From: Lingula anatina
Taxonomy: Eukaryota > Animalia > Brachiopoda
Direction of reading: 5' to 3'
DNA length: 64,000 nt
Assembly (NCBI GenBank): GCA_051362555.1
Contig: CM120640.1
Location: forward strand, 36,661,967 to 36,725,966
Position numbers and translations under genes: made by a program. Below are positions 7,071 to 49,065 of the stretch, one piece after another; the first letter of the stretch is position 1, and every line of letters starts with the position of its first letter. The notes beneath the pieces are model-generated. The model saw nothing but the letters and a program-made list of their open reading frames with translations. It was not told the origin of the DNA and made no database searches.

Positions 7071-7114
7071 GGAACATTACCAACAACAACAATATATGGT
7101 GAGTGACAAAATAT

Positions 7115-7120
7115 TTTATT
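7115..7120 (-). terminator. Polyadenylation signal of orphan gene copy A
   Basis: AATAAA conserved in both arms (17483-17488), followed by GTCACTCAC and a GU-rich TTGTTGTT element. Confidence 0.6.
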
Positions 7121-7512
7121 TCATATTTTAGTATTGTTCTGTATTACAATTGACAAGAAAATCTGATTGTAAAAATTGTTCCTTAGAACATGAAAACAGT
7201 TGTATATATACAAATCACAAGAAAATGACTGTGTGGAAGATAGATTTTAATAAAGTTCAGGAGCATAATATTAACATGTAAGAATGGAGATTTATCAAAA
7301 TACTGCATACCTGTGGAACATTATTGGCTTTATACTCTACTTATTATGCATGATTCAATTTTTTCAGATAAATTGCAATATTATGGAGAAAGAAATTTAA
7401 AAAGCAATTATATTCTTCGCACATTAATCAGTTCTGACCTTACATTTAAAACTTTCTCATTATTTTCACTAATAAACAATAATTGAGTGGACAATGTTTT
7501 CTTTTTTTTTTC

Positions 7513-7795
7513 CAGAGTAAATGATATAACTGGTGATGATAGACCTACATACTCACACTTCCAGAGGAATATAGCAGTGTTGGTGTTGATGGGGCCCTAC
7601 ATCAACACAAACACATGCTATGATGAAAAGATCATGACCAATGACCTTACAGATTTGGCCAAAATCAATAAGGGTTGATCATGAACTTTCCAAATGTTCC
7701 TGTCAGTGTGGCCAGCACCAACAAGAACATAATCCTCCTCAGAGATGTTCTAATGAGTATGTAGTCAATGATAACCAGAAATAACATAAACACTA
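7513..7795 (-). other. Structured 3'UTR RNA element (four-way junction, three GGCC-loop hairpins), copy A
   Basis: Only three differences from 16693-16975 in 283 nt, while the flanks are clearly diverged. It folds into an outer stem plus three hairpins. Confidence 0.8.
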
Positions 7796-8540
7796 CATGT
7801 TACTTCATGAAACCAAAATGATCTTATTTGATAAAGGAGATAAACATTAATGTGACAACTTTTACTTCTTTATTCATACTTCGAATTCTGTTTCATGATT
7901 TTCATTGTTTTTCATTAATTTTTAGACTTTTATTTAATTATCTATTTATTTACTCATTTCTTTCTTTATGTATTTATTTATCTATTTTGCAGAAAGAATT
8001 TCTTTTCTTATTTTTATTTCAAATTTTATTTCAGGGTTTTCTTTATTTTTTCTTTTGTTCACTTTTTTTCAAACTATTTGTTTATTTATTTAGTTAGTTT
8101 TATTATGGATCCTACTGCATTATATGATCATAAATTCTCCAGTATGTACAATATTGTTTTTGCTGTTCATCAAAGATGATAAAAAATCCAATTCAAAAAT
8201 AATATTTAGCCAGTAAAAGTTTTTGTTTTAAATGCCCTTTTTTTCTAAAATATTTGTTTAAGAGATTTGATTAAAAAATAGAAAGTCTAAAAGTTTTATG
8301 CAAAGATATCCAAAATATTATATCTTCCACACAGTCATCAAAGTGTTTACAAAGGAAGTTGTATACAAATGTAAGGATTGAATTCGTAAAAAGGTTGCCA
8401 GAAATCTTTCTGTATAGAATTCTAAAAATATTGAAATTGATAATGTAAATTTGCAAATGTTCTCTCTAAACAACTAAATGCCATAATATATATATACAGT
8501 AGAAAAGATATATACAAACAGGGGTATTTGTACTAACATA

Positions 8541-9182
8541 TTACCCCATACCAAATATTCTCAATACAAATCTAGTAAAGGCTGAGCGCCTTTTAGAAGA
8601 GGGTGCAACTTTTGCCATGTCTTTCTTACTTTTACTTCCCATAATTCTACCAGTTCTACTGGGATGTATAAACTCACTACACAACTTAGCGGTGCCATAC
8701 AACTTTGTCTTTTCCAAAGCATCGGCAACACTTCTTGAAGTGTGCCTGTAACTGATAGGGTGCCAAGGAGAACGCAAAAGAGATCTAGGCATAGGTGTTT
8801 TACGAGCACGCCTACCCCTCATCCTCCACAGAGGATCAGCCACAATAATTTCCCCCCTTTCGTTTCTCCCCTCACCACCACCATACAAAGCTTTAGTAGC
8901 AACAGGAATACGACTAGGTTTATGTATTCTTTGGATTACAACTACTGGGCAGTGAGCCCTCACAGTAGAACGGAGACACCCGTTAACTGCTACAGGGATT
9001 CTAGACCTAACCGTAGGTTTTTCTAGAACATTCTTAGCAAAGGTAAACAGCGTTGAAGCCATAGTGGCTAGCTTTGTATTTGATACCTTAGTTTTGGATC
9101 TTAATATGCCACCACATCCACATGGGCAATAAAATGCGTGGTAGTGGGTCCTACAACGGGTGGATACAGTGGAAGTACACAT
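8541..9182 (-). CDS. Orphan basic 213-aa protein, copy A (N-terminal Cys/His cluster, 2x SRIP motif)
   Basis: ATG lies 2 nt after the acceptor TTGCTCCTTTCAG (exon 2 starts at 9184). Intron 9185-9549 has a GTGAGT donor. The ORF is intact in both arms. The two SRIPVA repeats use different codons (TCT AGA ATC CCT GTA GCA vs AGT CGT ATT CCT GTT GCT), which indicates protein-level constraint. Confidence 0.75.
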   Translation of the reverse strand: MCTSTVSTRCRTHYHAFYCPCGCGGILRSKTKVSNTKLATMASTLFTFAKNVLEKPTVRSRIPVAVNGCLRSTVRAHCPVVVIQRIHKPSRIPVATKALYGGGEGRNERGEIIVADPLWRMRGRRARKTPMPRSLLRSPWHPISYRHTSRSVADALEKTKLYGTAKLCSEFIHPSRTGRIMGSKSKKDMAKVAPSSKRRSAFTRFVLRIFGMG

Positions 9183-9421
9183 GTCTGAAAGGAGCAAGAA
9201 TTATCTTTGCTGTACATAACTATTTGTTGATTCTTATGTCATTGTAAATGTACAGAGACGTGCATGTGAGATGTAGTACATGTTCGGGCATAATTGTTGG
9301 GGTTTTATTTACCTCTCACTAAAATGCGAGAGTTAGCAAAAAATGTTTCACCCAAATAAAAATCCAACAGATCAAAGGTGAGTCTATCAATAAAATAAAC
9401 AAATGAGAAAAAATTCTCTCC

Positions 9422-11831: not shown

Positions 11832-12130
11832 CCTTGAGTGATATAAATTAAAGTGAGACTTTCGACGTATGAGATGGTTTTGTATCGCTATGAGGTATAA
11901 TCTAGCTCTGGTTTTATGACCAATTTTATAACCTACAACAGGACACATCAATACTCTGTCACCGTTAACGTTTGTAAAATCACGTTTCACAAATAAAAGA
12001 TAAAAAGTAATAAATGAAATTAAATATAAGCAGCTCGTATATATGTAGACTTGCGAGACACAATTTTAGACGACTAATTTGGCGAGTAGAGTCCACATAA
12101 GACTTAATTCTGACAAAAGGGCACAGAAAT

Positions 12131-12996: not shown

Positions 12997-14008
12997 TAGA
13001 ATTCTCGCCTAAAGTTTATACAAGGTCCTATGACAAGGCGTGCTAAGTTGAATCGGCATTGATCAATTAATACAGCACTAACAGTACATGGAACTGACAC
13101 TAATAATATTATCACTGAAATACTCTTTTTAAATATACGACAAGACAAGATCCATGGGGGGAAAATACCCATACGACATTTAAATCAAGATTTTGTCAAT
13201 CAAAAGTGCTGCAGAGTAATAAGGATGAATTCAGCATTTGGGGCGGAACTAAGTGAAGAACGTCCCCCAACCGAAGGGGAAAAAAAACATAAAAGCTGTA
13301 TAATTATTCAAAATTCAGATGCAATAAGCAAAGTCAGACATAGTTTTATAAAAATATGGTATGAGGAGTTCCACGTATCAAATGGATTTGTAATGGAGAT
13401 TTAATCTAGACAATTTTTATAACCCATTCGAGAACCTACTATAGGACACTTTGATAATCACTGTCACCGTTAACGTCTATTAAATCACGTTTCACAAATA
13501 AAAGATAAGAAGCAATAAATGAAATTAAACATAGATCTAAGCACACGGAGATTGAATAGGCCTACTACAGGTTGGTACAGTATTAGACTAGACCACGTTT
13601 TACATGACGTACTGTGCAACAAAAACGCAATCGGCAATCCTCGGCTGATTCCGCAAGAATGTCAGGCCAGACATGGCAGATTACGTTATACGCTGAAATT
13701 GTGACGTAGATGGATAACGTTGTTTGGCAAGTTGCCAAATGCTGACGTCAGTTGCTATTTTACTAGTATCTTTTTTGTTTTGGCAACAGACCCATTCACA
13801 TCTTTTTTAAATTATTTTGATATCCAACTAAACTAATTAATCAAATATTCTATCAATGATTATAATGCTGAGTTTTGCATTGTCTAATTATTTCTGTTGT
13901 TTCACGTATTTTTTCAATCGAGGAATATGTAAAAAATTGATATGAAACTAAAAAACTATTTTGTTTTTCGGATATCGTCAAGGCAACAGACAGATCATTA
14001 CGCCATAG

Positions 14009-14173
14009 TATATAAAGCCAGCACGCTCCACGAGCGTCAGTTGACAACGAGCTTGCACAGTGAGCAGACTTACGTCACTTCACAGCGAATTTCTAAGCAG
14101 TTTCAACTGTCAGTTGCCTCAGGCTTTCACCTGTTCTACATCTTTTTACCACTGTATCTTGAAAGAGATATCG
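14009..14173 (+). promoter_or_regulatory. TATA box + initiator + non-coding exon 1 of orphan gene copy B
   Basis: TATATAAA 14009-14016, TCAGTT Inr with A at 14039, donor G|GTGAGT at 14173/14174, and an upstream TGACGTCA (CRE) at ~13743. Confidence 0.75.
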
Positions 14174-14406
14174 GTGAGTTTTTCTGCATATTATCTATTC
14201 AAAATTCCATTTTTTTTTAGAAATTGGATTTTTTTATTTTCTGACCATGTCTTATTTCTGTTTTCGAAAAAAAAAAAAACGGAAAGAATTTCGATTTTTT
14301 TTCATTTGTTTATTTATTGATAGACTCACCTTTGATCTATTGGATTTTTATTTGGGTGAAACATAGAAAATATATATTTTTTATGTCTGACCAGAGTAAG
14401 ATGCAG

Positions 14407-15097
14407 GGGCCGGTTTCACAAAGCAGTAGTTAGTTAGCGATCGGTAGTTAGCCTCTCGCTAGTTAGAGTGCCGTTTCACGAAGCAGTCGCTAGTTCTCTC
14501 GCTCGTTATTGTCTCGTTGTTGCCTTGGATATTTAACGACTGGTCAGACCAGTCGCTAACTCTAGAGTTTCATCGTACGCATGCGTAATGAGTGAAATAA
14601 AAAGGTTGCTTAGTTACCGTTGTCTGTCGTTTGTCTTTGTATCCAATATGGCGGCTACCTGTGTTTCTTGCTAACCGTACCGCCAGACGGCAACGTAGAC
14701 TACGACGTTTTCATGAAAGGCAGAATCTATTAGAATATACACACGATGATGCAATTTACGAGAGGTTGCGCCTAGCTGTGACAAAAAGAGCGGCAAAAAG
14801 GTGGTGGAGATCCTTTACGACGACCTCAAAGCAGACGTTCTTATGCATTTCCAGCCACCAAAAATTGGAGAGTTAGTGCTTTCGTGACACTTTTACGCAA
14901 GAGTTCCACTTCCGGTAGACGGTTTCGAGACTACGGTGAGTAACGAGAGAACTAACGACCGAACTTTACGACTGAACTTAGCGATGAGTTAACTACTGCT
15001 TCGTGAAACACCCCTCGAAAATCGCTAAGTTTGCCCGTTAGCGAGGTAGTTCAGTAGTTAGTTGTTCTAACTAACTACTGCTTTGTGAAACTGGCCC
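14407..15097 (+). mobile_element. Non-autonomous PIF/Harbinger DNA transposon in the intron of orphan copy B
   Basis: TIRs GGGCCGGTTTCACAAAGCAGTAGTTAGTTAG / CTAACTAACTACTGCTTTGTGAAACTGGCCC, with a 3-bp TSD CAG. The internal remnant RRFHERQNLLEYTHDDAIYERLRL resembles the Harbinger transposase N-terminus. Absent from the left arm. Confidence 0.88.
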
Positions 15098-15307
15098 CAG
15101 GAGATTTGAGTGAATTTTGACCAAACTTCTAGAAAGACCAATAAAGATTTTTACTAACTCTCGCATTTTAGTGAGAGGTAAATAAAAACCCTACAATTAT
15201 GCCCGAACATGTACTGCATCTCACATGCATGTTTCTGTACATTTACAATGACATAAGAATCAACAAATAGTTATGTACAGCAAAGATAATTCTTGCTCCT
15301 TTCAGAC

Positions 15308-15949
15308 ATGTGTACTTCCACTGTATCCACCCGTTGTAGGACCCACTACCACGCATTTTATTGCCCATGTGGATGTGGTGGCATCTTTAGATCCAAAACT
15401 AAGGTATCAAATACAACGCTAGCCACTATGGCTTCCACGTTGTTTACCTTTGCTAAGAATGTCATAGGAAAACCTACGGTTAGGTCTAGAATCCCTGTAG
15501 CAGTTAACGGGTGTCTCCGTTCTACTGTGAGGGCTCACTGCCCAGTAGTTGTAATCCAAAGAATACATAAACCTAGTCGTATTCCTGTTGCTACTAAAGC
15601 TTTGTATGGTGGTGGTGAGGGGAGAAACGAAAGGGGGGAAATTATTGTGGCTGATCCTCTGTGGAGGATGAGGGGTAGGCGTGCTCGTAAAACACCTATG
15701 CCTAGATCTCTTTTGCGTTCTCCTTGGCACCCTATCAGCTACAGGCACACTTCAAGAAGTGTTGCAGATGCTTTGGAAAAGACAAAGTTGTATGGCACCG
15801 CTAAGTTGTGTGGTGAGTTTATACATCCCAGTAGAACTGGTAGAATTATGGGAAGTAAAAGTAAGAAAGACATGACAAAAGTTGCACCCTCTTCTAAAAG
15901 GCGCTCAGCCTTTACTAGATTTGTGTTGAGAATATTTGGTATGGGGTAA
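15308..15949 (+). CDS. Orphan basic 213-aa protein, copy B
   Basis: Acceptor CTCCTTTTCAG|ACATG at 15305/15306. Six amino-acid differences from copy A and several synonymous changes, with no indels or stops. 41 K+R vs 8 D+E. Confidence 0.75.
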   Translation: MCTSTVSTRCRTHYHAFYCPCGCGGIFRSKTKVSNTTLATMASTLFTFAKNVIGKPTVRSRIPVAVNGCLRSTVRAHCPVVVIQRIHKPSRIPVATKALYGGGEGRNERGEIIVADPLWRMRGRRARKTPMPRSLLRSPWHPISYRHTSRSVADALEKTKLYGTAKLCGEFIHPSRTGRIMGSKSKKDMTKVAPSSKRRSAFTRFVLRIFGMG

Positions 15950-16692
15950 TATGTTAGCACAAATACCCCTGTTTGTATATATCTTTTCTACTGTATATAT
16001 ATATTATGGCATTTAGTTGTTTAGAGAGAACATTTGCAAATTTACATTATCAATTTCAATATTTTTAGAATTCTATACAGAAAGATTTCTTGCAACCTTT
16101 TTACGAATTCAATCCTTACATTTGTATACAACTTCCTTTGTAAACACTTTGATGACTGTGTGGAAGATATAACATTTTGGATATTTTTCTGATAAAATTA
16201 GAAGAAATTTTAAGTTTATTAAAATAAATTCCTTTTTACACTGCAGCAAAAATTATGGTTATTTGAAACAAAAATTTCCTACTGCCTTAATATTGTATTG
16301 GATTTTATTCTTAAACAGCAAAACCTATATGCATTGTGCAATTTATAGTGATCTGTATTGGGAAAAATACAAGGTACCTTGAAAAGATATAAATAGAATT
16401 AGTTTGAAAAATAAGTTAAAAATTAAATAAAAAATAAGGATAATATCATAATACAAAATAAATAAGCAAATAAATATAAAAATATATTTAAAAATAAGTA
16501 AAGAACATGATAAAAATTCTCACTTGAAAATAAATTGTTTGAAGAAAAATAATTAGAAAAATTAAATAGATGAAAAACAAAAAAATCATAAAATTAAAAC
16601 TGAAATGTAGATTTAAAAAATAAACAGAAATTCCCACATTTATATTTATTTCTTTATCAAATTAGATAATTTCTGTTAAATGTAGTATCATG

Positions 16693-16975
16693 CAGTGTTT
16701 ATGTTATTTCTGGTTATCATTGACTACATACTCATTAGAACATCTCTGAGGAGGATCATGTTCTTGTTGGTGCTGGCCACACTGACAGGAACATTTGGAA
16801 AGTTCATGATCAACCCTTATTGATTTTGGCCAAATCTGTAAGGACATTGGTCATGATCTTTTCATCATAGCATGTGTTTGTGTTGATGTAGGGCCCCATC
16901 AACACCAACACTGCTATATTCCTCTGGAAGTGTGAGTATGTAGGTCTATCATCACCAGTTATATCATTTACTCTG
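16693..16975 (+). other. Structured 3'UTR RNA element (four-way junction, three GGCC-loop hairpins), copy B
   Basis: Outer stem 16693-16734/16933-16975; hairpins 16758-16794, 16796-16864, 16867-16917. G-U wobbles work only on this (mRNA) strand. Confidence 0.8.
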
Positions 16976-17482
16976 AAAAAATCCGTATTGTCGTCTCAGC
17001 ATTATTAATGAAAATGATGAAAAAGTTTTTTTAAAAATTATTAATATCTAAAAATATTAGGTCAGAACTGATGTAAGTTAAATGATTTATTTAATGGTTC
17101 ATTTTCGAAAATATTGCAATCTGTCATAGAAAATTTGAATCATGCATAATAAGCAGAATTTAAAGCAATAATGTTCAACAGGTTTGCAGTGTTTTGATAA
17201 ATCTCTATTCTTAAAGTGTTAATATTATGCTTCTGGATTTTATTACAATCATTCCATAATGATATGTATTCAGTTTTTTTTTTTTTTTTTTTTTTTTTAC
17301 ATAAGCCCTTTTCTGTAGGTGTTTAAAACATCCCCCCCCCCCAAATTTGTTAAAATCATTCTTCCACACAGTCATATCCTTCCAACTTGTATATTCATCT
17401 GTTTTCTTATCCAAAAAGAAAATTTTATATTTTCAAGTCAGTATATCTTTTTAATTGTAATATCTTGTAATATCAAATATGA

Positions 17483-17488
17483 AATAAA
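17483..17488 (+). terminator. Polyadenylation signal of orphan gene copy B
   Basis: AATAAA conserved with 7115-7120, with downstream TTTTGTTGTTTTTTGG. Confidence 0.6.
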
Positions 17489-17531
17489 AGACTTAGTCAC
17501 TCACTATATTTCTATATTTTGTTGTTTTTTG

Positions 17532-17579
<48 letters not shown>

Positions 17580-17883
17580 CACACCAGCACAAATATGTTT
17601 GTATACACACACAGAGGATTAAAAACCTGTTTAAAAACACACAAAGAATCAGACTGATAAAACTTTATTTCTGATTTAACTAACTAATAGAAAATTTATT
17701 ATTACTTACATTAATGGAATCAAGTATATAAATATCAGAATATCTTATATCAGAAAGATATTTCAAGAGAAGTAATACAAACTCTGTCTATAGATCTTTA
17801 CTATAACATTCAAGTAAATGTCATTTCTTTCAAAAACTTACAATTTTAGCTTAACTCTTACTTTCAATTCCTGGTCAGTGCTC

Positions 17884-17923
<40 letters not shown>

Positions 17924-20329
17924 AGATTTGATATCTTGCCAGAGAGCAGAAGACATGAACTAACATTAACATTAGCAATAACATGCCAATGGAGGTTTCA
18001 GTGGATATGCCTATGTTTAGTGTGTGTCTAACTGCTGCACTCATGGAGATGAAAAGGCTGCTTTTTTGTTGACAAGTGATTGACAGAAGAATACCCCTCC
18101 CTCCCTGCTACATTTTCACGATGTGCTATCTCTATTAATGCTTGGACTGAGTTTCCACTCAGAGCTGTAGATTTACACTCAAGCTACTCTATGGATGCTT
18201 TTACATAAATTTTGAGATTTTTTACACTGCAATATTGAATTTATTGAAACAGATACCCTTGCATTTCTTCTTTACCTAGACATCATGGTCAGCTGAAGCC
18301 AAAATGAATGACATAAACTTTGCTTATCCTACTTTATTGTATTATGAAGATCTCACCTTTAGTTACCCACAAAAACAAGCATTCTCACATTAAATTTGAT
18401 ATTTGGAACTTTTAAATCATTTTACATTATAACATGTAAAATATTGCCTGGGAAAAATATTTTTGTTCATAAGTTTTGTTCATAATAAATGAGCATTGTA
18501 AAGTACAAAATTTACCTGGACAATATATAAAAGCAACATAGATGTACTCTGGTGATGGCTTAGCAGAGACATGGCATTTCAACTGTGCAAATTTTTCATA
18601 GTAACAGAATACAATAGAAAATTAAACATGACTGCTTGACACATTTATTTATAGAACTACTACGTCATGACACATTTACAGTTATACAAAGCAAATATTT
18701 CACTGCTGTGCAGAACATAGCTTACTAATTCTTTTTATGATGGTTACATTTCACAACAATTGATAAAATTCCCATTGTCCTATTAAAACATTCCCAATCT
18801 GGTTTAAATTACTTTCACTTACCTAAATTCAACATTTTGCAAGATATATTTAAGAAAACATTATGGGTGAAGTGCAGCACACAAAGGATTCAAAGAAAAG
18901 TCCGCTCTAACTAATTAAAATTACATAATAAATATTTGTTCAGACACCATGTTACTGGTCTTTTTTTTTCGCATGAGATAGTACCTGAACTTATCAATAA
19001 CATTAATTTCTAAAAATGACTCAAAGCATGATAGCTTAATTAGCCTACGACTAAATCAATTAATCAATCAGAGAATCATGTCGACCGCAGTCGACCATCA
19101 AAATACTCAATTAAGCATCATCATAACTAGATTTCCAGACCCTGTGGTCCCCCACAAGACAGGCAAGCTCAGTTGTGTTCTCCAAACCGGTGTCCTCAAG
19201 GACAACCTGGACGCAAGGAGTTGCTGGTCGTAAGTTTTGTTTTGTGCACCCGATGATCCACGTGTGGGTACCCAGAGCAGAAATCAATTACGAATTCAAA
19301 CGTCACCTTAATATCAACCTTGAGAAATATAGGTGAACATTCCTTATGTTTTAAGGAGACTTAATCTTGCAGTATCAACAATAAAAATGCAAGGGTGATT
19401 GTACACCTTTTTATGAACCTTACAAACACGATTGGTATGCACCACGTTTGCAACAATTAATTTTATTCCAACACTGGTCCTCAAAAATAAATTGTCGACC
19501 ACGCCTGAAAACATCATTGCCGTTGCGAATTCTACTTCTTTATTAAAAGTTGCAGTTCGACATTAGATCCTTTGTATTAACATATCGAACCCCCTGTCAA
19601 CATACTGTAATTGATCAATATTTAGTTTGTACTGTCCACGCGTCTTTCGAGTTGTTCAATCCATTATCTCCAGATTTTCTTCAACCAGCCAAAGGAAAAC
19701 AAAGTTTGTCTGCAAAACCAGTCTCTAACGGGTTTTTCCCTGTTCCCATGACATCTTACAAACATCCTCAACCTCTACCTGTTGTAACTTTGACTCACTA
19801 TTGTATCGTTTTGATATTACAGCTCAGCTCGATCTGCATGGATTGCGGACAATAGAGGCTTATCCATGCTGCTTACTGATCAATAGAGTGCAATAGAAAT
19901 CTCTATATAGACTAAACACAAAGCCAAGTGTAATTACGTGGCCACAAACATATATTACACTACTGCAGCAGAACTTTAAGGCCAGTGCACTGTCCGGGAT
20001 ACTCATATATAGATCTACAGTAGCCGCTGGTCGTACGGAAGGTAGGTTAAATTTTGTCACTTCAAAAATCTTGAAATATTTTTACATTCACGCGTTCAGA
20101 TGCTCAGGTATCAGGCTGTCTTGCTAGGTAGGTTCTTCGATTACGTAATTCGACCTTCCAACTTCTATATGAAGGGTTTAGTCTGACGTCGCCATTTCGT
20201 TCTAACTTCAAAACCCCAGCGTTGTTCGATGGGCCCTGGTATTTCATGATGAACATAGGAACTTCTGTTCAGTATTGTTCGTTGGTCATTGGGTCAGTTG
20301 GAGGGTGGGGCAAGGGAGGGGCTGCTACC

Positions 20330-31533: not shown

Positions 31534-33663
31534 CTTTTGTGTGAACTGATCAGGAATTACTTAAGGATATTAGGCCTACACATTCGTGTTCTCTCCGTAG
31601 GATTTTCACCTTGACTGGTGTGTGTAAATTAAAATAGCCTGTAATTTTAAATATGATTTACCGATATGTGAGTGTGATAAGCGGACTACGGGTAGCACTC
31701 TGGTGGGTACATTCTGACATTTTGACTTGACACAGGCGTGGTGACAATGCCCGCAAAATATATGTCTGTTGAACTGAACTTGACCATCCATTAAGACATT
31801 GTAGCCTTAGAGCAATAGATGTTCACAGCACGACTTTAAGTCCTATTCTCTTTTTTACCGAATTCGATTACGTTTTTCAAAAGCCGTGTCACCGTATTTT
31901 GCAATATATAAATGCCGAGGTATATTGATGCTCTAAAAAACCCAGGGAGCACGTGTCAGAATCATATTTCTCTATTGAAAACAATGTTGTCAGGATTTTA
32001 GTAGCAATGGTGGTATTAACATCACATTTTTTATCATTTAAACGGAATTCAAACATCAGCACAAAACAGTATAAAAATAATGCTTATTTTTCAAGAGTGT
32101 TAAATCCTTTTTACAATGGAGAATAGTAAGGGAAGTGTTCAATTATGTTGTCTCATGGACATTCAGAGATGCAAATTATTAGATTATCTTACCGAGTTTG
32201 GCGACACTTCGTAGACTAGCTGACTGAAAGTTTCCAAGCCTCGCAAAATTCCCCACACACTTTTGGAAATAAGGAGGGCCCCACGGGAGTTAACCGTCAG
32301 TTCATCTGAAGTTAAGATACACAGCATCAGGCGTATAAATCTGAGATATAACACGTAGATGATAAAAGTTTGTTAATGATTCAGAGAAATATGTTAACAT
32401 TATTAAAATTTAAAACTTTCACATTTTACACTATGATTAAGAATGGGAAATCATTTCCCTATCATACGTCTAAGCGTACCGACAGAGGCACGCACTTCCC
32501 TCTCCTTCACGCGTGCACACACACACACACGCACACACACACAAACACACACACACACACACACACTATCTTTAAGCTGGATAATCTTACAAGACTCGTC
32601 CATTCCTAGAGATGGGTATTCTTCGCACTTGGCTAACAAAGTGACATTCAAGCGTTTCAGCACAACTTCTGAACGTCTTTGAAAAATGGATTCGTTGCCC
32701 GGATTTTTCGTTGTCACATCGATGACAGTGTCAAGAATGATACTCGTGTAGCGTTCTCTGGCTTCTTCTATAATTTTACACGTTTTTCCGGTGATATATA
32801 TTCCAAAATTTTCTGCGTATATACTGTAGACTCCAGTTCCCTTGATATACATTTTGGGCATAGGCCAAGGCTCTCCTTTCGTTTCTATCGCTGGAAGTAA
32901 TTCGGACCTCATAGGTGATGGGGGCGGTGGTCTTTCTTGAGACTGAAATGGTGGTTCAGTATTACGTTGAACAGGTGCCCGTGGGCCGGTGTTTCCTTGT
33001 CCATGGTGTTGGTGATCTACAACGTTTACCTTCAGCGTAACTTGAGGTCCGGTTTTTTGTTGCTGCTGCTTCCGTTGCTGCTCCTGCTGCTGTAGCTGTT
33101 GTTGTATTTGTAGCAGATGCCACTGCTGTTGTTGGTTTACAGGCTGTTGTAAAAATTGTTGTGTATGTTGTATTTGTTGTTGCTGCTGATTTGAAGGTTG
33201 TTGCAATTGCTGCTGTTGTTGTAATGGCTGTTGTGGTTGCTGCTGCTGCTGCTGTAATGAGTGTTGAGTAGGTTGTATTTGATGTTGCTGTTGCTGTAAT
33301 AGTTGTTGTGGTTGCTGCTGCTGATGCTGTAATGACTGTTGTGTATGTATTTGTTTCTGCTGTTGTTGTAATGGTTGTTGGGGTTGCTGTTGTTCTTGTT
33401 GTAATGGTAGCTGTGGGTTCTGCTGTTGCTGTAATGGTTGTTGCTGTTGCTGTTTCTGTAATGACTGTTCTGGTTGCGGTTGCTGTTGTAATGACTGTTG
33501 ATTATGGTTTAGCTGTAATGACTGTTGCTCTTTATGCTGTAATAATTGTTGCTGTTGCTGCTGCAATGGTTGCTGATGTAATGGCTGATTTTGCTCTAGT
33601 TGTGGCTGCTGCAATAACTGTTGTTGCTGTATTGGCTGTTGTTGTTTCTGCACTAATGGCCTC

Positions 33664-33731
<68 letters not shown>

Positions 33732-34064
33732 CTGTTGTATTGACTGCTGTTGTCGTGGATTCCTATGGTTACTGTACTCTTGCTGCTGCTGCTGCTGCAA
33801 ATGCTGTGGAACAATATATTTATCAGCTGAATGTTTCGGGCCAGTTTGCGGTTGCACCTGCACATTTTGTCTTTGTTTGCCTTGAACCACATGTTTTTGT
33901 TGTTGTCCGTCGAGTTTTACATCCACAACTGGGACGATATGCTTGACATTTGCGCCTTGGCCTACTCGAACATAAGTTACCTGCTCCGTTTTTCCTCCTA
34001 TGTGAAAATGCATGAATGAGGTTAAAATTAGAGAAACTAGCGACGCCCATTTCGACGACGACAT
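24129..34064 (-). CDS. Beta-hexosaminidase (GH20, HEXA/HEXB-like) with Gln-rich insert; exons 34064-32591, 32305-32193, 30762-30652, 29745-29644, 28922-28814, 28403-28199, 27924-27841, 26035-25948, 25614-25437, 25222-25132, 24822-24718, 24393-24129
   Basis: [78 protein letters not shown], catalytic [18 protein letters not shown] and [13 protein letters not shown]. Splice phases are consistent across all 12 exons. Confidence 0.95.
33055..33800 (-). repeat. Coding CAG/CAA-rich polyglutamine low-complexity tract
   Basis: Long (CAG)n(CAA)n runs and repeated QQPLQQQQ units within hexosaminidase exon 1. Confidence 0.95.
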
Positions 34065-39737: not shown

Positions 39738-40713
39738 AGAAATACCGAAAACGATGATCCCAATATTTGGAGAAACTGTGCACAGTTTTGTGACTTTTTA
39801 AAGATAAGTCTATCATTTAAAAACAGTTGTCGAATTCTTCGAAATAAACAAATAAATAAAGAAGAAAGTAATAATGTTTATCTCTTATAAAAAGCAACTA
39901 CTGTTTAAACATTAAGAAATTAACGTCGTTTTTAGTTGTATTTCATGTATGTAATTTTTTTCTTTATAAAATAGACTCTGCTAATAATTCAACTACCAAC
40001 CTTTTTTACTTCTATTCGTGTCAAAGTCACCACTGACGAAGAGACATGCACTGATTTTCTGATTTCAATTTTTTAATTTAATTAAAATTCGAACCAACTG
40101 GAATTCGAAATTTGAGACAAAAGCATTGGGATTGAAAGTTTTTAATTAATTAATAAATGAAATTGCTCTCAGAGAGAAAGGTATCGAAAACACAATTATT
40201 AAATATGTTTTTAAGGAACACTTCACAACATATTTTAAAATGCTTACTATAGGGCTTATATTATGATTTTAAAAGTAAAATTTCCTTTGTAAGAAAAAAA
40301 TTATTAAAACAAAAAAAAGAGAAATAGATCTCGAGCCGCGGGTTTGTGATTGCAAACGCCAAACAAACGACTTAAAACGCGATTTCATGGTGCGAACGCA
40401 AAAATACATATCGCAAGCACCGCGAACGATTTGGTCTCTCGCTGTTTACATACGGGTTCCAAGATTCCTGGAACTATTTTCAATATGGCGGCAGATTTGA
40501 GAACGCGCACGTAGGGCTTTGAGATGAAAGTCAAGTCGAAAAAGAGTAATTGTCTATCCTTCCTCCGTCCATAATGAAAGAGATGGGATTCCTAGCGTCT
40601 GCAACAAGGCCCAGTAAAGTTACTCGATGTTCATTGACGGAATTTTAGGAGGAGTGTGATATTAGTTGCAAGTAAATATTTTATCACTTTTAGTTGAAAT
40701 ATAGCGTCCTTCT

Positions 40714-41660
40714 AATTTAAGACAAAGTCATTATTTTTATGTTTTCTGTCCAGGAATATGCATTTATCAATGGCGGATTTGGGGTAGGGGTTGGGCGCAG
40801 GCAGGTTCTTACCCTCCCCCCCCCCCCCCCCCCCTTCGATATATGAAAAAAAAAAATCACACCAATATTCCCCTTTTGATATTAGAATTTTGACTAGATG
40901 AATCGTAGTTCTAAACCGTACCAAATGGCAACGTTTGCCCCCCAAAACAACAATTTTTTCTTGGTTCTTGAGCAGGCCATGGTGAGGGTCGGCTTCACAT
41001 CTATCCGTCTACTTCATACCAGTATTGGTGTCTATAGACGTACATGAACAGATACAGATACATCAGAGGACCCCATTCAAATAATCCTGGATCCGCCCCT
41101 TTTTATGAGATACCTAAACAATAGAATTTTGACTTGAGATGTCTATTGTTTAATTCTAATAGTAATAATCTATAATTTTAGAATTTAAGAATTTAATTTA
41201 AGACAAAGTCATTATTTTTATGTTTTCTGTCCAGGAATATGCATTTATCAATGGCGGATTTGGGGTAGGGGTTGGGCGCAGGCAGGTTCTTACCCTCCCC
41301 CCCCCCCCCCCCTTCGATATATGAAAAAAAAAAATCACACCAATATTCCCCTTTTGATATTAGAATTTTGACTAGATGAATCGTAGTTCTAAACCGTACC
41401 AAATGGCAACGTTTGCCCCCCAAAACAACAATTTTTTCTTGGTTCTTGAGCAGGCCATGGTGAGGGTCGGCTTCACATCTATCCGTCTACTTCATACCAG
41501 TATTGGTGTCTATAGACGTACATGAACAGATACAGATACATCAGAGGACCCCATTCAAATAATCCTGGATCCGCCCCTTTTTATGAGATACCTAAACAAT
41601 AGAATTTTGACTTGAGATGTCTATTGTTTAATTCTAATAGTAATAATCTATAATTTTAGA
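40714..41660. repeat. Near-perfect tandem duplication (~470-480 bp unit) containing a GGCGGAT-type MITE
   Basis: 40714-41180 and 41195-41660 appear identical apart from the poly-C run length. Confidence 0.92.
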
Positions 41661-44895: not shown

Positions 44896-45299
44896 AATTT
44901 TAGACCACAGTAACAATTCAGGCAACTTCACTCATGCTGCTTTCTGTTACTACGATCTGAAAAAGTCTTCTTGCAATAAAGACAGCCTGGCATGTCTAAA
45001 AAAGAAAGTAGGAGTAGATTACTGGAAAGCTGACCCAGCAAATCTGGGGGGATAATAGAAACAAACAATAGAAAACAGTAAATCTGGAATACGTGAATTT
45101 GTATGACTGGGGTAAGTCTCGTAGTCGAGACTCTACAATGAAAGCGTTTCCGAAAGAAAGTCGGTTACTCTCGGTACAAAAAATATATTTAAAAAGTCAA
45201 AATGAGTCACATAATGTTTGGAATGGTTAATTATTTGTCATAAATGTTTTCACCTCTTTCAGTTATTTTTTTATTTTTTTTTTCCAGCACTGTTTTTTT

Positions 45300-47850
45300 T
45301 TCCATACTTTTGTCAGTATCTTCATATTGCGCAATATTCCTGCTGCTTCTTAGCCTTAAAATTAAGATTTAAGATTCAAATCTGCACAGCTCGATCAAAT
45401 TTTTAATTACTCTTCTGGCTCTGAATCCATTTTCTTCATTCTAATTTTTTATAGAGGATGAGTTCATCTTTGTTCTTCTATTCCTTTTTAAAGCAAGGTA
45501 TTGTATGCAGATTGCATTATAATACTGGTAAGCTTTCTTTTTTTCATTAAGGTTTTTAAACTAAAGATGTTCATATATGATGTTATTAGATTTTTTTTAA
45601 ACCAAAGATACATGTATACATGTTAAACCATATTCATTTTATTACTAACTGATTCTATCATTTCATACTATTGAGAGATGTTACATGAATGACTCTGATT
45701 ATGAATGGTTTCAGGTCCCACTCTGTTTTTGATGGTATAGGGGTCACAGCAGTAAGGCTGAATTACAATACCATGACATAAACAGATAGGAAGTTAACAA
45801 TTTGATGAGTATAAGCCAAAGTCAAATTATTAAACAAAGACAGTAAATAAATAACCAATAAAGACCAGCCTTTCATATACTTTTACTCTGAAGTGGTCAT
45901 TACCAGACATCGCATCTACACACACAGTCACAACCCACACTTGCATCAGAAATGTCTGATTTTTGATTAGTTTCAGGAAGTTCTTTGTCACATTGTCCAC
46001 ATCTATATGCAGGTGTGTCAAAAGAATATTGTTTGTTCTTATTGCTCCAGGGCAGAATATTAGGTACTATAAATTGCTTAAAAAAACTAACACAAGCAGG
46101 CAATAATTTTCTTTGGCAAAATTTATCATTATATCTAACCTCAATCACCATCATGTCAACATTTGTCCAAATTACAAATTCACATCTATAAAATATGTTT
46201 CCCTTGCACTGCATTCTTTTTCATCATTCCAATTTACTTTACTTTAAGGAGTGGGAAGACCCTAAATTTTCCACTCCCACATTTTTCAAAGTGTTCTGAG
46301 CAGGTGGTGTTTCGCACACTTTGGTCTTTCACCTGCTGTTTATGAACTCAAATTTATCTATCTATCAATCTTTTTTAGTTTCTTTGAATTTTCCACTGTG
46401 TTATGCAGTTTCATCTTCCATACTTTTGTCAATATCTTCATATTGCACAATTATGAATATTCCTGCTGGTTCTTAGCCTTAAGATTAAGATTTGAGATTC
46501 AAATCTGCAAGACTCTCTCAAATTTTTAATTACTCTTCTGGCTCTGAATCCATTTTCTTCATTCTAATTTCTTTTATAGTGGATGAGTTCATCTTTGTTT
46601 TATTCCTCTTGAAACCAAGGTATTGTATGCAGATTGCATTATAATACTGACAAGCTTCCTTTTTTTCATTAGGTTTTTAAACTAAAGATATGATATATAA
46701 TGTTATTAGATGTTTTTTAAACCAAAGATACATGTATACATGTTAAACCATATTCATTTGATTACTAACTGATTCTATGGGTATATGATATGGGATGCCT
46801 TGGGAAGTATCAACTCACCTTTGATGTCCATATCCTGTGCTCCCCAGGAGCACTTCACCATCATGCTGTCCAGAGAGGTTACCCTAATTACTCTGTTTAT
46901 ATAGGGTTTTGGCTCCCACACTATGTTTTTATAGGCTTCATGGCAGTAGGGCTGAATTTCAATACCATAAATATACCATACTCATAAACAGATAGGAAAG
47001 TAACAATATGATGAACATTAGCCAAAATCTGATGAGCAAACAATGGATGTTTGATAACTGAAGAAGAACTGATTTTCATACACTTTTCCACTTAAATGTT
47101 CATTGAAGTAGAAAAATGCTCATGATAAAATACATTATAAAATGACATTTCTTTTAAATTAAAAATCAATACCTAAAACATAGTCTAGAACATGATGACA
47201 CATTTAACTTCTTTTCAGTATGTTTATTACTGAACTAAATTGGTCGCACCAGCTGAAATTCAAGTTCTGAAACCTTTGATGCCAAAAACGCAACCCCGTT
47301 GCATTGCATAATATCATTAATCCAATACATTGTCTTTGCATATGTGTTAATGATTTATATTAATCATATTTTCAAAACCAGTAAGTTCAACTAATTTACT
47401 TAATATACAGATAGAAAGAATGTCTCTTCTCAGAATTAACTCCTTATTCATGTTTTACATTCTTAAATCATTGAGGATCGAGAAGCTATATTGGTGATGT
47501 TAGTTATAATAAATTGATAAAACAGATAATTATTTTCAGCTATATGGGATTCTTTAGAAAGTATCGACTCCCCTTTGATATCCATTTCTAATGCTGCCCA
47601 GGAGCACTTTATCATCATGGTATCACATGACGTAGCTTGAACAATCCTTTTTATAAAGAGTTTCGGCTTCCATTCTATGCTGGCATACGGGTCACAGCAG
47701 TAGGGCTGAATTACAATACCATGAAATAAACATATTGGGAGTTAACAATATGATGAGCGTAAGTCAAAATGAATGATTGAACAAAGAAAGCTAAATTAAA
47801 TTATTAAAAAAGATCAACCTTTTGTATACTTCGACTTTAAAATGGCCACT
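45300..47850. repeat. Degenerate local tandem duplications (45300-45660 ~ 46420-46780; 45700-45900 ~ 46900-47100 ~ 47660-47850), possibly decayed LINE sequence
   Basis: Shared blocks such as TTTTAATTACTCTTCTGGCTCTGAATCCATTTTCTTCATTC and GCAGTA.GGCTGAATT.CAATACCAT. One frame resembles the LINE 'YGSEVWG' motif, interrupted by stops. Confidence 0.7.
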
Positions 47851-48579: not shown

Positions 48580-49065
48580 TTAGTAATTATTATTACTTAT
48601 TTTGATATAACGGGAGTCATAAGCTGCCAGTGTTGTCTTGAACCCGTCAGATACACCATTGAAGGCGGGGTCGTCCTTGTGCATCTCTATGATTTTCTGG
48701 GTTGTGGCATCTAGCGATAGAGCAGGAGCTCCACCCCCAGTCTTGGCACTGTGGCTGTGTATGCCACAGTGTGCTTTCTTGACCGCAGTCACCAGCTGCC
48801 TCCATTTCTCTTTGCACTCTTCATGGGTTCTGCGAGCTGCTCCAACAGCAGTGATTTTACTGCTAATCTTGTTGTCCAAGCTTGATGTGTGCTTGTTTTT
48901 GATGGTACTGCGGTCTGCCTCTACCAGTTCCACCAGTAAAGTTTGTTCACTGACAGACCAGTTTTGTTTCCTGCACCTCTTTTTCTCGGATATTGACATT
49001 GCCAAAGTACATTAAAGCAGACAACACAAATGAACGTGCTAAACGTCCTTTATAAAACCGGGCCC
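48580..49065 (-). mobile_element. Harbinger-derived Myb/SANT-like (MSANTD/NAIF1-type) ORF remnant with a terminal TIR
   Basis: RKQNWSVSEQTLLVELV...RRTHEECKEKWRQL...KTGGGAP, with the central 'AW' helix apparently deleted. TATAAAACCGGGCCC+AG at 49051-49067 resembles a Harbinger TIR. Confidence 0.75.

Follow-up and report, generated by a model that had tools for sequence, protein, structure and literature searches.

The stem-loop SL2b/OES of the Drosophila oskar 3' UTR exposes a GC-rich 6-nt palindrome with pyrimidine flanks (PMC11567897, PMC13549266, PMC7357161), and this loop is described as needed for granule assembly (PMC11567897), together with Bruno, Staufen and high concentration (PMC13549266). 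Single-stranded three-arm RNA nanostars have been engineered from consecutive stems of ~15-20 bp, with distinct sequences and short linkers, that end in palindromic 6-nt kissing loops; such stars condense, three arms are the lowest valence for condensation, and replacing one loop stops it (PMC11289419).

The element described here, which we call the star, is a 283-nt sequence in the predicted 3' UTR of a gene of Lingula anatina, present in two copies within the window, the whole stretch of 64,000 nt that was analysed. It is predicted to fold into a four-way junction, with an outer stem and three hairpin arms (H1, H2 and H3). Like the oskar element it has GC-rich 6-nt palindromes with pyrimidine flanks, predicted to be exposed and to lie in a 3' UTR, but oskar has one loop (CCGCGG) and draws its valence from proteins and loose pairing, whereas the star has three related loops of two kinds on one junction; we claim no sequence relationship. 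The star shares its arrangement of stems, linkers and palindromic tips with the engineered nanostars, which unlike it are designed and carry identical 9-nt HIV-type loops (PMC11289419). In the star the loops measure 7-8 nt and are of two types, the arms are bulged and differ in length, and a long fourth stem would tie it into the mRNA.

Retroviral dimer signals (HIV-1 DIS, MoMuLV, FIV) also place a palindromic loop on a stem able to form an extended duplex (PMC7357161); the FIV palindrome contains the star's hexamer UGGCCA (PMC2987497), and the MoMuLV leader has several kissing motifs (PMC7357161). Unlike the star, they lie in the 5' leader or gag and end in a defined dimer (PMC7357161, PMC2987497), and the gene around the star was not retroviral in Pfam, protein and viral-contig searches. 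Domain III of the 3' UTR of bicoid, a localised mRNA, and phi29 pRNA can give trimers and larger assemblies through loop-loop contacts, but do so with two complementary, non-palindromic sites joined head to tail, a valence of two (PMC7357161). OLE, GOLLD, ROOL and manA are natural RNAs with several intermolecular kissing loops (PMC12286853; bioRxiv 10.64898/2026.07.01.735769), with GGCC in a symmetric kiss in OLE L9.3 (PMC12286853); unlike the star they are prokaryotic, tertiary-folded RNAs that make closed cages or set-size dimers, and they neither sit in an mRNA tail nor repeat one hairpin three times. In a search of largely open-access literature, no natural mRNA element turned up in which a single junction bears three palindromic loops, and nothing on the host gene. 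The initial annotation, made from the DNA letters, had known of no described natural element with this architecture; it had missed the known natural RNAs with multiple kissing loops (MoMuLV, manA, GOLLD, ROOL), though none of those considered here is a three-palindrome star in an mRNA.

The features of the locus are listed in Table 1. A recheck confirmed the sequence, coordinates, loops and three copy differences that the initial annotation had given.

Table 1. Features of the star locus, by position in the window.
Feature	Position	Strand	Description	Basis
Star element, copy B	7513..7795	-	H1 7730-7694, H2 7692-7624, H3 7621-7571; 3 differences from copy A	
ORF B	8541..9182	-	213 aa; 13 codons differ from ORF A (7 synonymous, 6 non-synonymous)	
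Core promoter, gene A	14009..14042	+	TATATAAA at 14009-14016, TCAGTT at 14037-14042, 30 nt later; kept in copy B	sequence
Predicted non-coding exon 1	14039..14173	+	donor GTGAGT at 14174	sequence; LOC106181127 model reads through same junction
ORF A	15308..15949	+	213 aa, pI 11.4; acceptor AG at 15304-15305	
Long-range helix around star, 5' strand	16152..16167	+	perfect 16 bp; copy B has 19 bp (8339-8321/7242-7224)	
Candidate proximal poly(A) signal	16619..16624	+	AATAAA, ~70 nt upstream of star, U-rich sequence after it (7874 in copy B)	
Star element, copy A	16693..16975	+	four-way junction closed by the outer stem and bearing hairpin arms H1-H3	fold prediction
Closing stem, 5' strand	16693..16753	+	partner 16919-16975; breaks mainly U-U mismatches	
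Arm H1	16758..16794	+	15 bp, 3 G-U; loop CUGGCCA = C + palindrome UGGCCA (16774-16779)	
Arm H2	16796..16864	+	~28 bp with bulges; loop U + UGGCCA (16827-16832) within 10-nt palindrome 16825-16834	
Arm H3	16867..16917	+	20 bp; loop UAGGGCCC = UA + palindrome GGGCCC (16891-16896)	
Closing stem, 3' strand	16919..16975	+		predicted pairing
Long-range helix around star, 3' strand	17360..17375	+	16 bp; unchanged in copy B, where the surrounding region is 75% identical	
Candidate distal poly(A) signal	17483..17488	+	AATAAA, U/GU-rich sequence after it (7120 in copy B)	

The initial annotation had proposed that the fold of both strands be compared with shuffled sequences. The star was far more stable than its shuffles: its minimum free energy (MFE) was -114.4 kcal/mol, whereas the shuffles averaged -70.2 and 0/200 were as stable (z -8.39). 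The antisense strand folded too (MFE -97.0, z -7.66), as did the element as single-stranded DNA (z -7.27). When both strands of the 64-kb window were scanned with a 140-nt step, the most stable 283-nt segment was one overlapping the element. Nearly all base pairs of the arms had pair probabilities of 0.8-1.0. The inner connector (16740-16753/16919-16931) was weaker (0.39-0.71), and despite this the junction is predicted to be closed by 16725-16735/16932-16942, with linkers of 4, 1, 2 and 1 nt. In the MFE structure the H2 loop is UGGCC, becoming U-UGGCCA if the last U-A pair (probability 0.83) opens. The predicted fold was unchanged at 20 C, and the loops were predicted to remain open in the wider context of 16500-17510. 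The working principle of a nanostar, at least three stems from one junction with a self-complementary loop at each tip, is thus present in the predicted fold. The outer stem (16696-16721/16947-16972) has a break every 2-5 bp, mostly a U-U mismatch and the same in both copies; such breaks could let so long a helix escape double-stranded-RNA sensors, or could make up a protein site.

The GGCC palindromic loops of the initial annotation occur in all three arms, but the palindromes are 6 nt long and of two kinds. In each loop the palindrome directly adjoins the 3' strand and is preceded by 1-2 spare nucleotides (C-UGGCCA, U-UGGCCA and UA-GGGCCC), and the palindrome bases are predicted to be unpaired with probabilities of 0.96-1.0, except for the last A of H2 (0.16). 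GGCC was found in 5 of the 2376 other predicted 5-9-nt loops of the window, and a 6-nt palindrome with a GC-only core in none of them, against three of three star loops. The oskar-type form, in which a stem-loop exposes a 6-nt palindrome with a GC content of 50% or more (PMC13549266), is seen in the prediction in full for H1 and H3, and with five of six bases exposed for H2. The outer pair of the palindrome is U..A in H1 and H2 and G..C in H3, so that it is changed on both sides. As these bases are predicted to be unpaired within the H1 and H3 hairpins (probabilities of 0.96-0.97), a loop-loop helix would best explain the double change, which is one event in three sequences. Double changes of this type accompany proven symmetric kisses both in OLE RNA (GGCC/GAUC/AGCU; PMC12286853) and in umbraviruses (PMC10484742).

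Duplex energies were -12.5 for GGGCCC, the strongest of the 64 six-letter palindromes, and -9.1 for UGGCCA, compared with -10.7 for oskar CCGCGG and -7.9 for HIV-1 GUGCAC; cross pairing of H1 or H2 with H3 gives 4 bp only. Several points count against kissing. At 67% GC, UGGCCA lies at the 66% GC threshold below which palindromes failed to dimerise (PMC13549266), and an HIV loop of 66.7% GC, when placed in oskar, dimerised less and formed no higher oligomers (PMC11567897). HIV-1 DIS is described as needing flanking purines, and the DIS-type definition has purines on both sides of the palindrome (PMC7357161); the 7-8-nt star loops have none, with C, U and UA as 5' flanks and no 3' flank. The idea that spare nucleotides on the 5' side favour kissing geometry found no confirmation in the accessible text of PMC2602780, and we do not count it as evidence. 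Few fly mRNAs expose a GC-rich palindrome (60 genes, 1.4%, with 9 in 3' UTRs; PMC13549266), germ-granule mRNAs conceal GC-rich palindromes by folding (PMC12398620), and few RNAs dimerise in cells (PMC9104694). Three palindromes predicted to be exposed on one junction are the reverse of this default concealment.

A finding beyond the initial annotation is that the three arms prove similar when they are superposed at their tips, and that every comparison of two arms holds 3-4 compensatory pair changes. Aligned from the tip without gaps, H1 and H3 have 20/30 letters alike (p 0.004 when pair order was shuffled with composition and orientation kept) and the three comparisons together 47/90 (p 1.3e-4); the register was chosen after the sequences had been viewed, which makes these p values optimistic, and the comparison is one of three sequences. 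Other pairs of hairpins in the window reached 20 in 14 of 7503 cases, the top four being true duplicates. Across 15 positions, the pair changes were 3 compensatory, 2 one-sided and 1 broken for H1/H3, 4, 3 and 5 for H1/H2, and 4, 1 and 6 for H2/H3. The breaks in H2 fall mostly past position 11, where a bulge shifts the register, and the likeness of H2 spans ~11 positions. When neutral decay was simulated to the H1/H3 distance, at least 29 of 30 pairs were intact in 72 of 200000 runs. This covariation is between the arms of one element and not between species, and the two nearly identical copies carry none. A single kissing hairpin would have been triplicated to give the arms, or a shared constraint would have made them converge.

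The mismatches also carry a strand bias. In the fold without G-U pairs, the 20 positions opposed within small symmetric loops were 10 U-U, 6 G-U, 2 U-C, 1 C-C, 1 A-A and 0 A-C, so that 19/20 were of the sense-strand type (p 2e-5). In a decaying DNA inverted repeat each mismatch type would equal its complement, and the bias is as expected for RNA on the sense strand; the U-richness of that strand (100/283 letters) accounts for part of the U-U excess, and G-T also stabilises single-stranded DNA. The initial annotation had spoken of an mRNA strand, and the mismatches favour the sense strand, while the label itself rests on the predicted 3' UTR. Compensatory changes between arms, the outer-pair covariation of the palindromes and the strand-biased mismatches together support selection on the RNA structure of the sense strand and on self-complementary loops. 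The annotation, which had none of this evidence, is to that extent partly supported; the multimerisation, condensation and localisation that it proposed are putative functions of the element.

In alignment, the outer stem sets the limits of the near-identity between the two star copies. The copies differ only at 16693, 16757 and 16844 (280/283 identical), i.e. at 3/283 positions inside the element versus 46/166 ungapped flank columns, and the initial annotation was right that the conserved block matches the structure between diverged flanks. The copies belong to an inverted head-to-head whole-gene duplication (13689-19397 vs 10039-5476), in which the block 15148-16188, taking in intron as well as synonymous sites and 240 nt of UTR, likewise reaches 98% identity. 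In 60-nt bins, the intron end, ORF and first 220 nt of UTR (15150-16170 vs 9342-8320) were 95-100% identical, and the adjoining spacer 57-68% with gaps. The gene copies have been homogenised block by block, probably by gene conversion, which the annotation's reading of the copy identity had missed. Given that the ORF/intron/UTR block is also 98% identical, the 99% identity of the star is inflated by homogenisation and is not pure evidence of selection; the sharp coincidence of the identity block with the structure is still suggestive of it.

Two further non-coding blocks are kept between the duplicates, 17110-17250 (~90% ungapped) and, beyond the predicted gene end, 18581-18858 vs 6238-5945 (78% ungapped); no strong fold common to both copies was found in the downstream block 17040-17260. 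The intron of copy A alone has an insert (14365-15147) holding a MITE-like element at ~14407-15097, which we take to be Harbinger-like; GGGCC opens its long terminal inverted repeats, and CAG is apparently its target duplication. A 73-nt direct repeat (11956-12028 / 13461-13533) lies between the two promoters.

The host gene is a Lingula orphan, and its basic product is predicted to be a microtubule-tip protein. We take the motif at 14009 to be a TATA box and TCAGTT at 14037-14042 to be initiator-like. The ORF protein has 41 basic and 8 acidic residues, and in ORF A two SRIP (SxIP-type) motifs at aa 60 and aa 90; at least two SxIP matches occurred in 0.17% of 100000 shuffles of the protein. 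SxIP binds EB1 at microtubule tips. The protein starts with a Cys/His-rich stretch (aa 2-24), and a second ATG in strong context at codon 42 is followed by ~60 residues without any acidic residue. Its sole relative, among 83 candidates and also among 1.84 billion representatives, was the Lingula anatina record LOC106181127 (98% identical), and it formed a cluster of 1. No Pfam family matched, the best PDB match had E 0.31, the Atlas gave no usable match, and no relatives were seen in 374 metagenome stretches or 20 viral contigs. A single-sequence fold had a pLDDT of 35.7, i.e. no confident fold. Seven of the 13 changed codons between the copies are synonymous (p 0.018 vs the synonymous share of sites), an excess which weakly supports the ORF as a real protein.

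The star starts 744 nt past the ORF stop, within the predicted 3' UTR. The initial annotation had missed the AATAAA ~70 nt upstream of the star, present in both copies. If the distal signal at 17483 is used, the star would be included in the mRNA, and if the proximal signal at 16619 is used it would be excluded. The A-rich spacer contains further AATAAA hexamers, which could likewise end the mRNA before the star but have little U downstream, in a scan that covered all but one short part of copy A. A second short helix around the star (16024-16032 with 17400-17408) is kept in both copies. The bracketing 16-19-bp helix and the distal signal are as expected for a long 3' UTR that includes the star. 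Mapping of 6-26% of each of four sequencing runs, out of nine whose content of the organism is presumed from the species label, onto copy B only (7080-9400) gave 3, 0, 0 and 5 reads; among these species-label reads none fell on the ORF, and depth was ~1 over H1-H2 in run X8.

A search of Rfam 15 at the gathering threshold, also proposed in the initial annotation, gave 0 matches in the window, and the star matches no family; the segment 15950-17520 gave two matches at chance level (E 3.2 and 4.2). No homologs of the star beyond the window were found in Rfam or in viral and metagenome sequences. A degenerate pattern of the H1/H3 tip matched four times in the window, always within the two star copies. 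The 1 viral and 30 metagenome loci matching this pattern were rejected as chance, with alignments to the element of at most 34 nt and three GGCC loops in 0/31. A microRNA cluster was also rejected, the arms spanning 37, 69 and 51 nt on linkers of 1-4 nt; microRNA hairpins have ~33-bp stems with single-stranded flanks. SECIS, H/ACA and parvovirus-telomere readings were rejected by eye on the features of these classes.

The arms may be repeated protein-binding hairpins whose palindromes are incidental, a reading we think improbable. H1 would then be a Smaug/SAM-domain element, H2 and H3 weaker copies or sites of another protein, and the stems would recruit carriers of the Staufen or Egalitarian type, by which the message is repressed, localised or degraded with no pairing between RNAs. 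H1 does match the Smaug recognition element, in the best-performing variants of the CNGGN0-3 consensus (the preferred CUGG and a G just 5' of the loop; PMC4053848), an optimal site that the initial annotation had overlooked. The window holds four Smaug-type hairpins with stems of at least 8, two of them the H1 copies themselves, and the 15-bp stem of H1 is the longest; all three star loops begin Y-N-G-G, and a common protein site would also account for the likeness of the arms. However, the invariant first position is a U in H2 and H3, which do not match the Smaug consensus, and Smaug, described as requiring no palindrome, ignores the 3' side of the loop (PMC4053848), yet all three loops complete a palindrome there, as does 1 of 109 other YNGG hairpins with loops of at least 7 in the window. 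UGGCCA also supplies the NGG itself, and the C and G before it would arise by chance in an estimated ~1 in 16 cases. The Smaug-hairpin and kissing readings can combine as a switch. We give little weight to a kissing interaction with a bounded product, whether a closed, high-avidity dimer of two molecules (H1-H2', H2-H1', H3-H3') or an H1-H2 kiss in one molecule that leaves H3 for an oskar-like simple dimer. The hexamer common to H1 and H2 and the separate one of H3 fit the wiring of a closed dimer, and there are precedents in the MoMuLV leader, where four motifs and crosswise SL1-SL2' kissing yield a dimer, and in the full bicoid 3' UTR, which makes dimers only though domain III alone makes trimers and tetramers (PMC7357161). 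Against this, arms of 15, 28 and 20 bp on 1-2-nt linkers seem poorly matched for a kiss in cis, and closing three unequal arms demands a particular geometry, which branching does not.

That the element acts outside the mature coding mRNA is very unlikely in our view, either as a separate non-coding RNA, made when transcription reads past the first AATAAA site, or as a structure that masks the U/GU-rich sequence downstream and so influences which poly(A) site is used. AATAAA precedes the element in both copies (16619 and 7874), and the element's 5' strand is U/GU-rich and paired; but the element has no Rfam match, conserved helices link the UTR near the stop codon with sequence beyond the star, and palindromic loops are unnecessary for hiding poly(A)-signal sequence. 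We regard as highly improbable a DNA-level relic, in which fold-back or transposon-end sequence from template switching left arms palindromic by origin and gene conversion kept the copies alike. In its favour, the arm tips are all perfect palindromes around GGCC apart from an insertion of 1-2 nt, as fold-back would produce; stable folds are predicted for either strand and for DNA, homogenisation has affected the gene pair block by block, and the ends of the MITE-like intron insert start with GGGCC. GGCC, however, makes up 2.5% of the 4-nt palindromes in the window, the mismatches are strand-biased 19 to 1, the arms have diverged with compensation, and the 64 kb hold two copies only, both in the same gene context. 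Nor does the element have the clean terminal inverted repeats and target-site duplication of a MITE or fold-back element: the outer stem is 77% complementary with U-U mismatches, no duplication was seen by eye at its ends, and the arm stems look unlike MITE ends.

We prefer the reading, on balance an even call, that the star loops pair between mRNA molecules and cross-link messages into multimers or granules, as in oskar but trivalent. H1 and H2 would pair with H1 or H2 of other molecules through UGGCCA, and H3 with H3 through GGGCCC, with six base pairs in each contact. Three stickers on stiff arms of 15, 28 and 20 bp with 1-4-nt linkers would be the lowest valence able to branch, and double-stranded-RNA-binding proteins would stabilise the loop contacts, as Staufen does for oskar. 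The likely purpose would be to store or localise a silenced, probably maternal, mRNA for the predicted microtubule-tip protein; this setting, suggested by the Smaug site and by analogies, is the weakest step of the explanation. In snail embryos mRNAs aggregate at microtubule centres via 3' UTR signals (bioRxiv 10.64898/2026.10.05.756875), and the cleavage of lingulids is radial (bioRxiv 10.1101/2024.05.28.596352), so spiralian centrosomal sorting need not apply. More speculatively, Smaug might cap one arm by binding H1, which would free the message to be degraded, and a star-less isoform might come from processing at the proximal poly(A) signal. A bolder form of the explanation, which we hold tentatively and think doubtful, is that a natural nanostar, born as a triplicated kissing hairpin, alone builds an RNA-scaffolded condensate, that Smaug drops its valence from 3 to 2 and so dissolves the condensate, and that poly(A)-site choice sets which messages carry the star.

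The question to which the star speaks is whether specific RNA-RNA pairing builds RNP granules in cells, for which there is essentially one worked animal case, oskar, where a single loop leads to a dimer only and proteins supply the rest. If the preferred reading of intermolecular pairing is true, the RNA itself would hold enough valence to branch, matching a design so far known from engineering. The star would also give a search image for other genomes, namely repeated hairpins with palindromic tips.

Elsewhere in the window we noted a Core-2/I-branching glycosyltransferase exon (PF02485; 21325-22518, +) and, at 32451-34064 (-), a 537-aa ORF without a Pfam match, with a signal-peptide-like start and a very long Q-rich region, whose C-terminal part presumably resembles a beta-hexosaminidase N-terminus. 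A Myb/SANT-like ORF (PF13873) lies at 48580-48999 (-), of a type that we take to be typical of Harbinger elements. Tandem repeats of 86-111 nt occupy 1694-2149, and a degenerate repeat with a period near 1.1 kb occupies 45292-47785. A tandem duplication at 40713-41593, with a period of ~480 nt and 100% identity over 119 and 300 nt, is either very recent or an assembly artefact.
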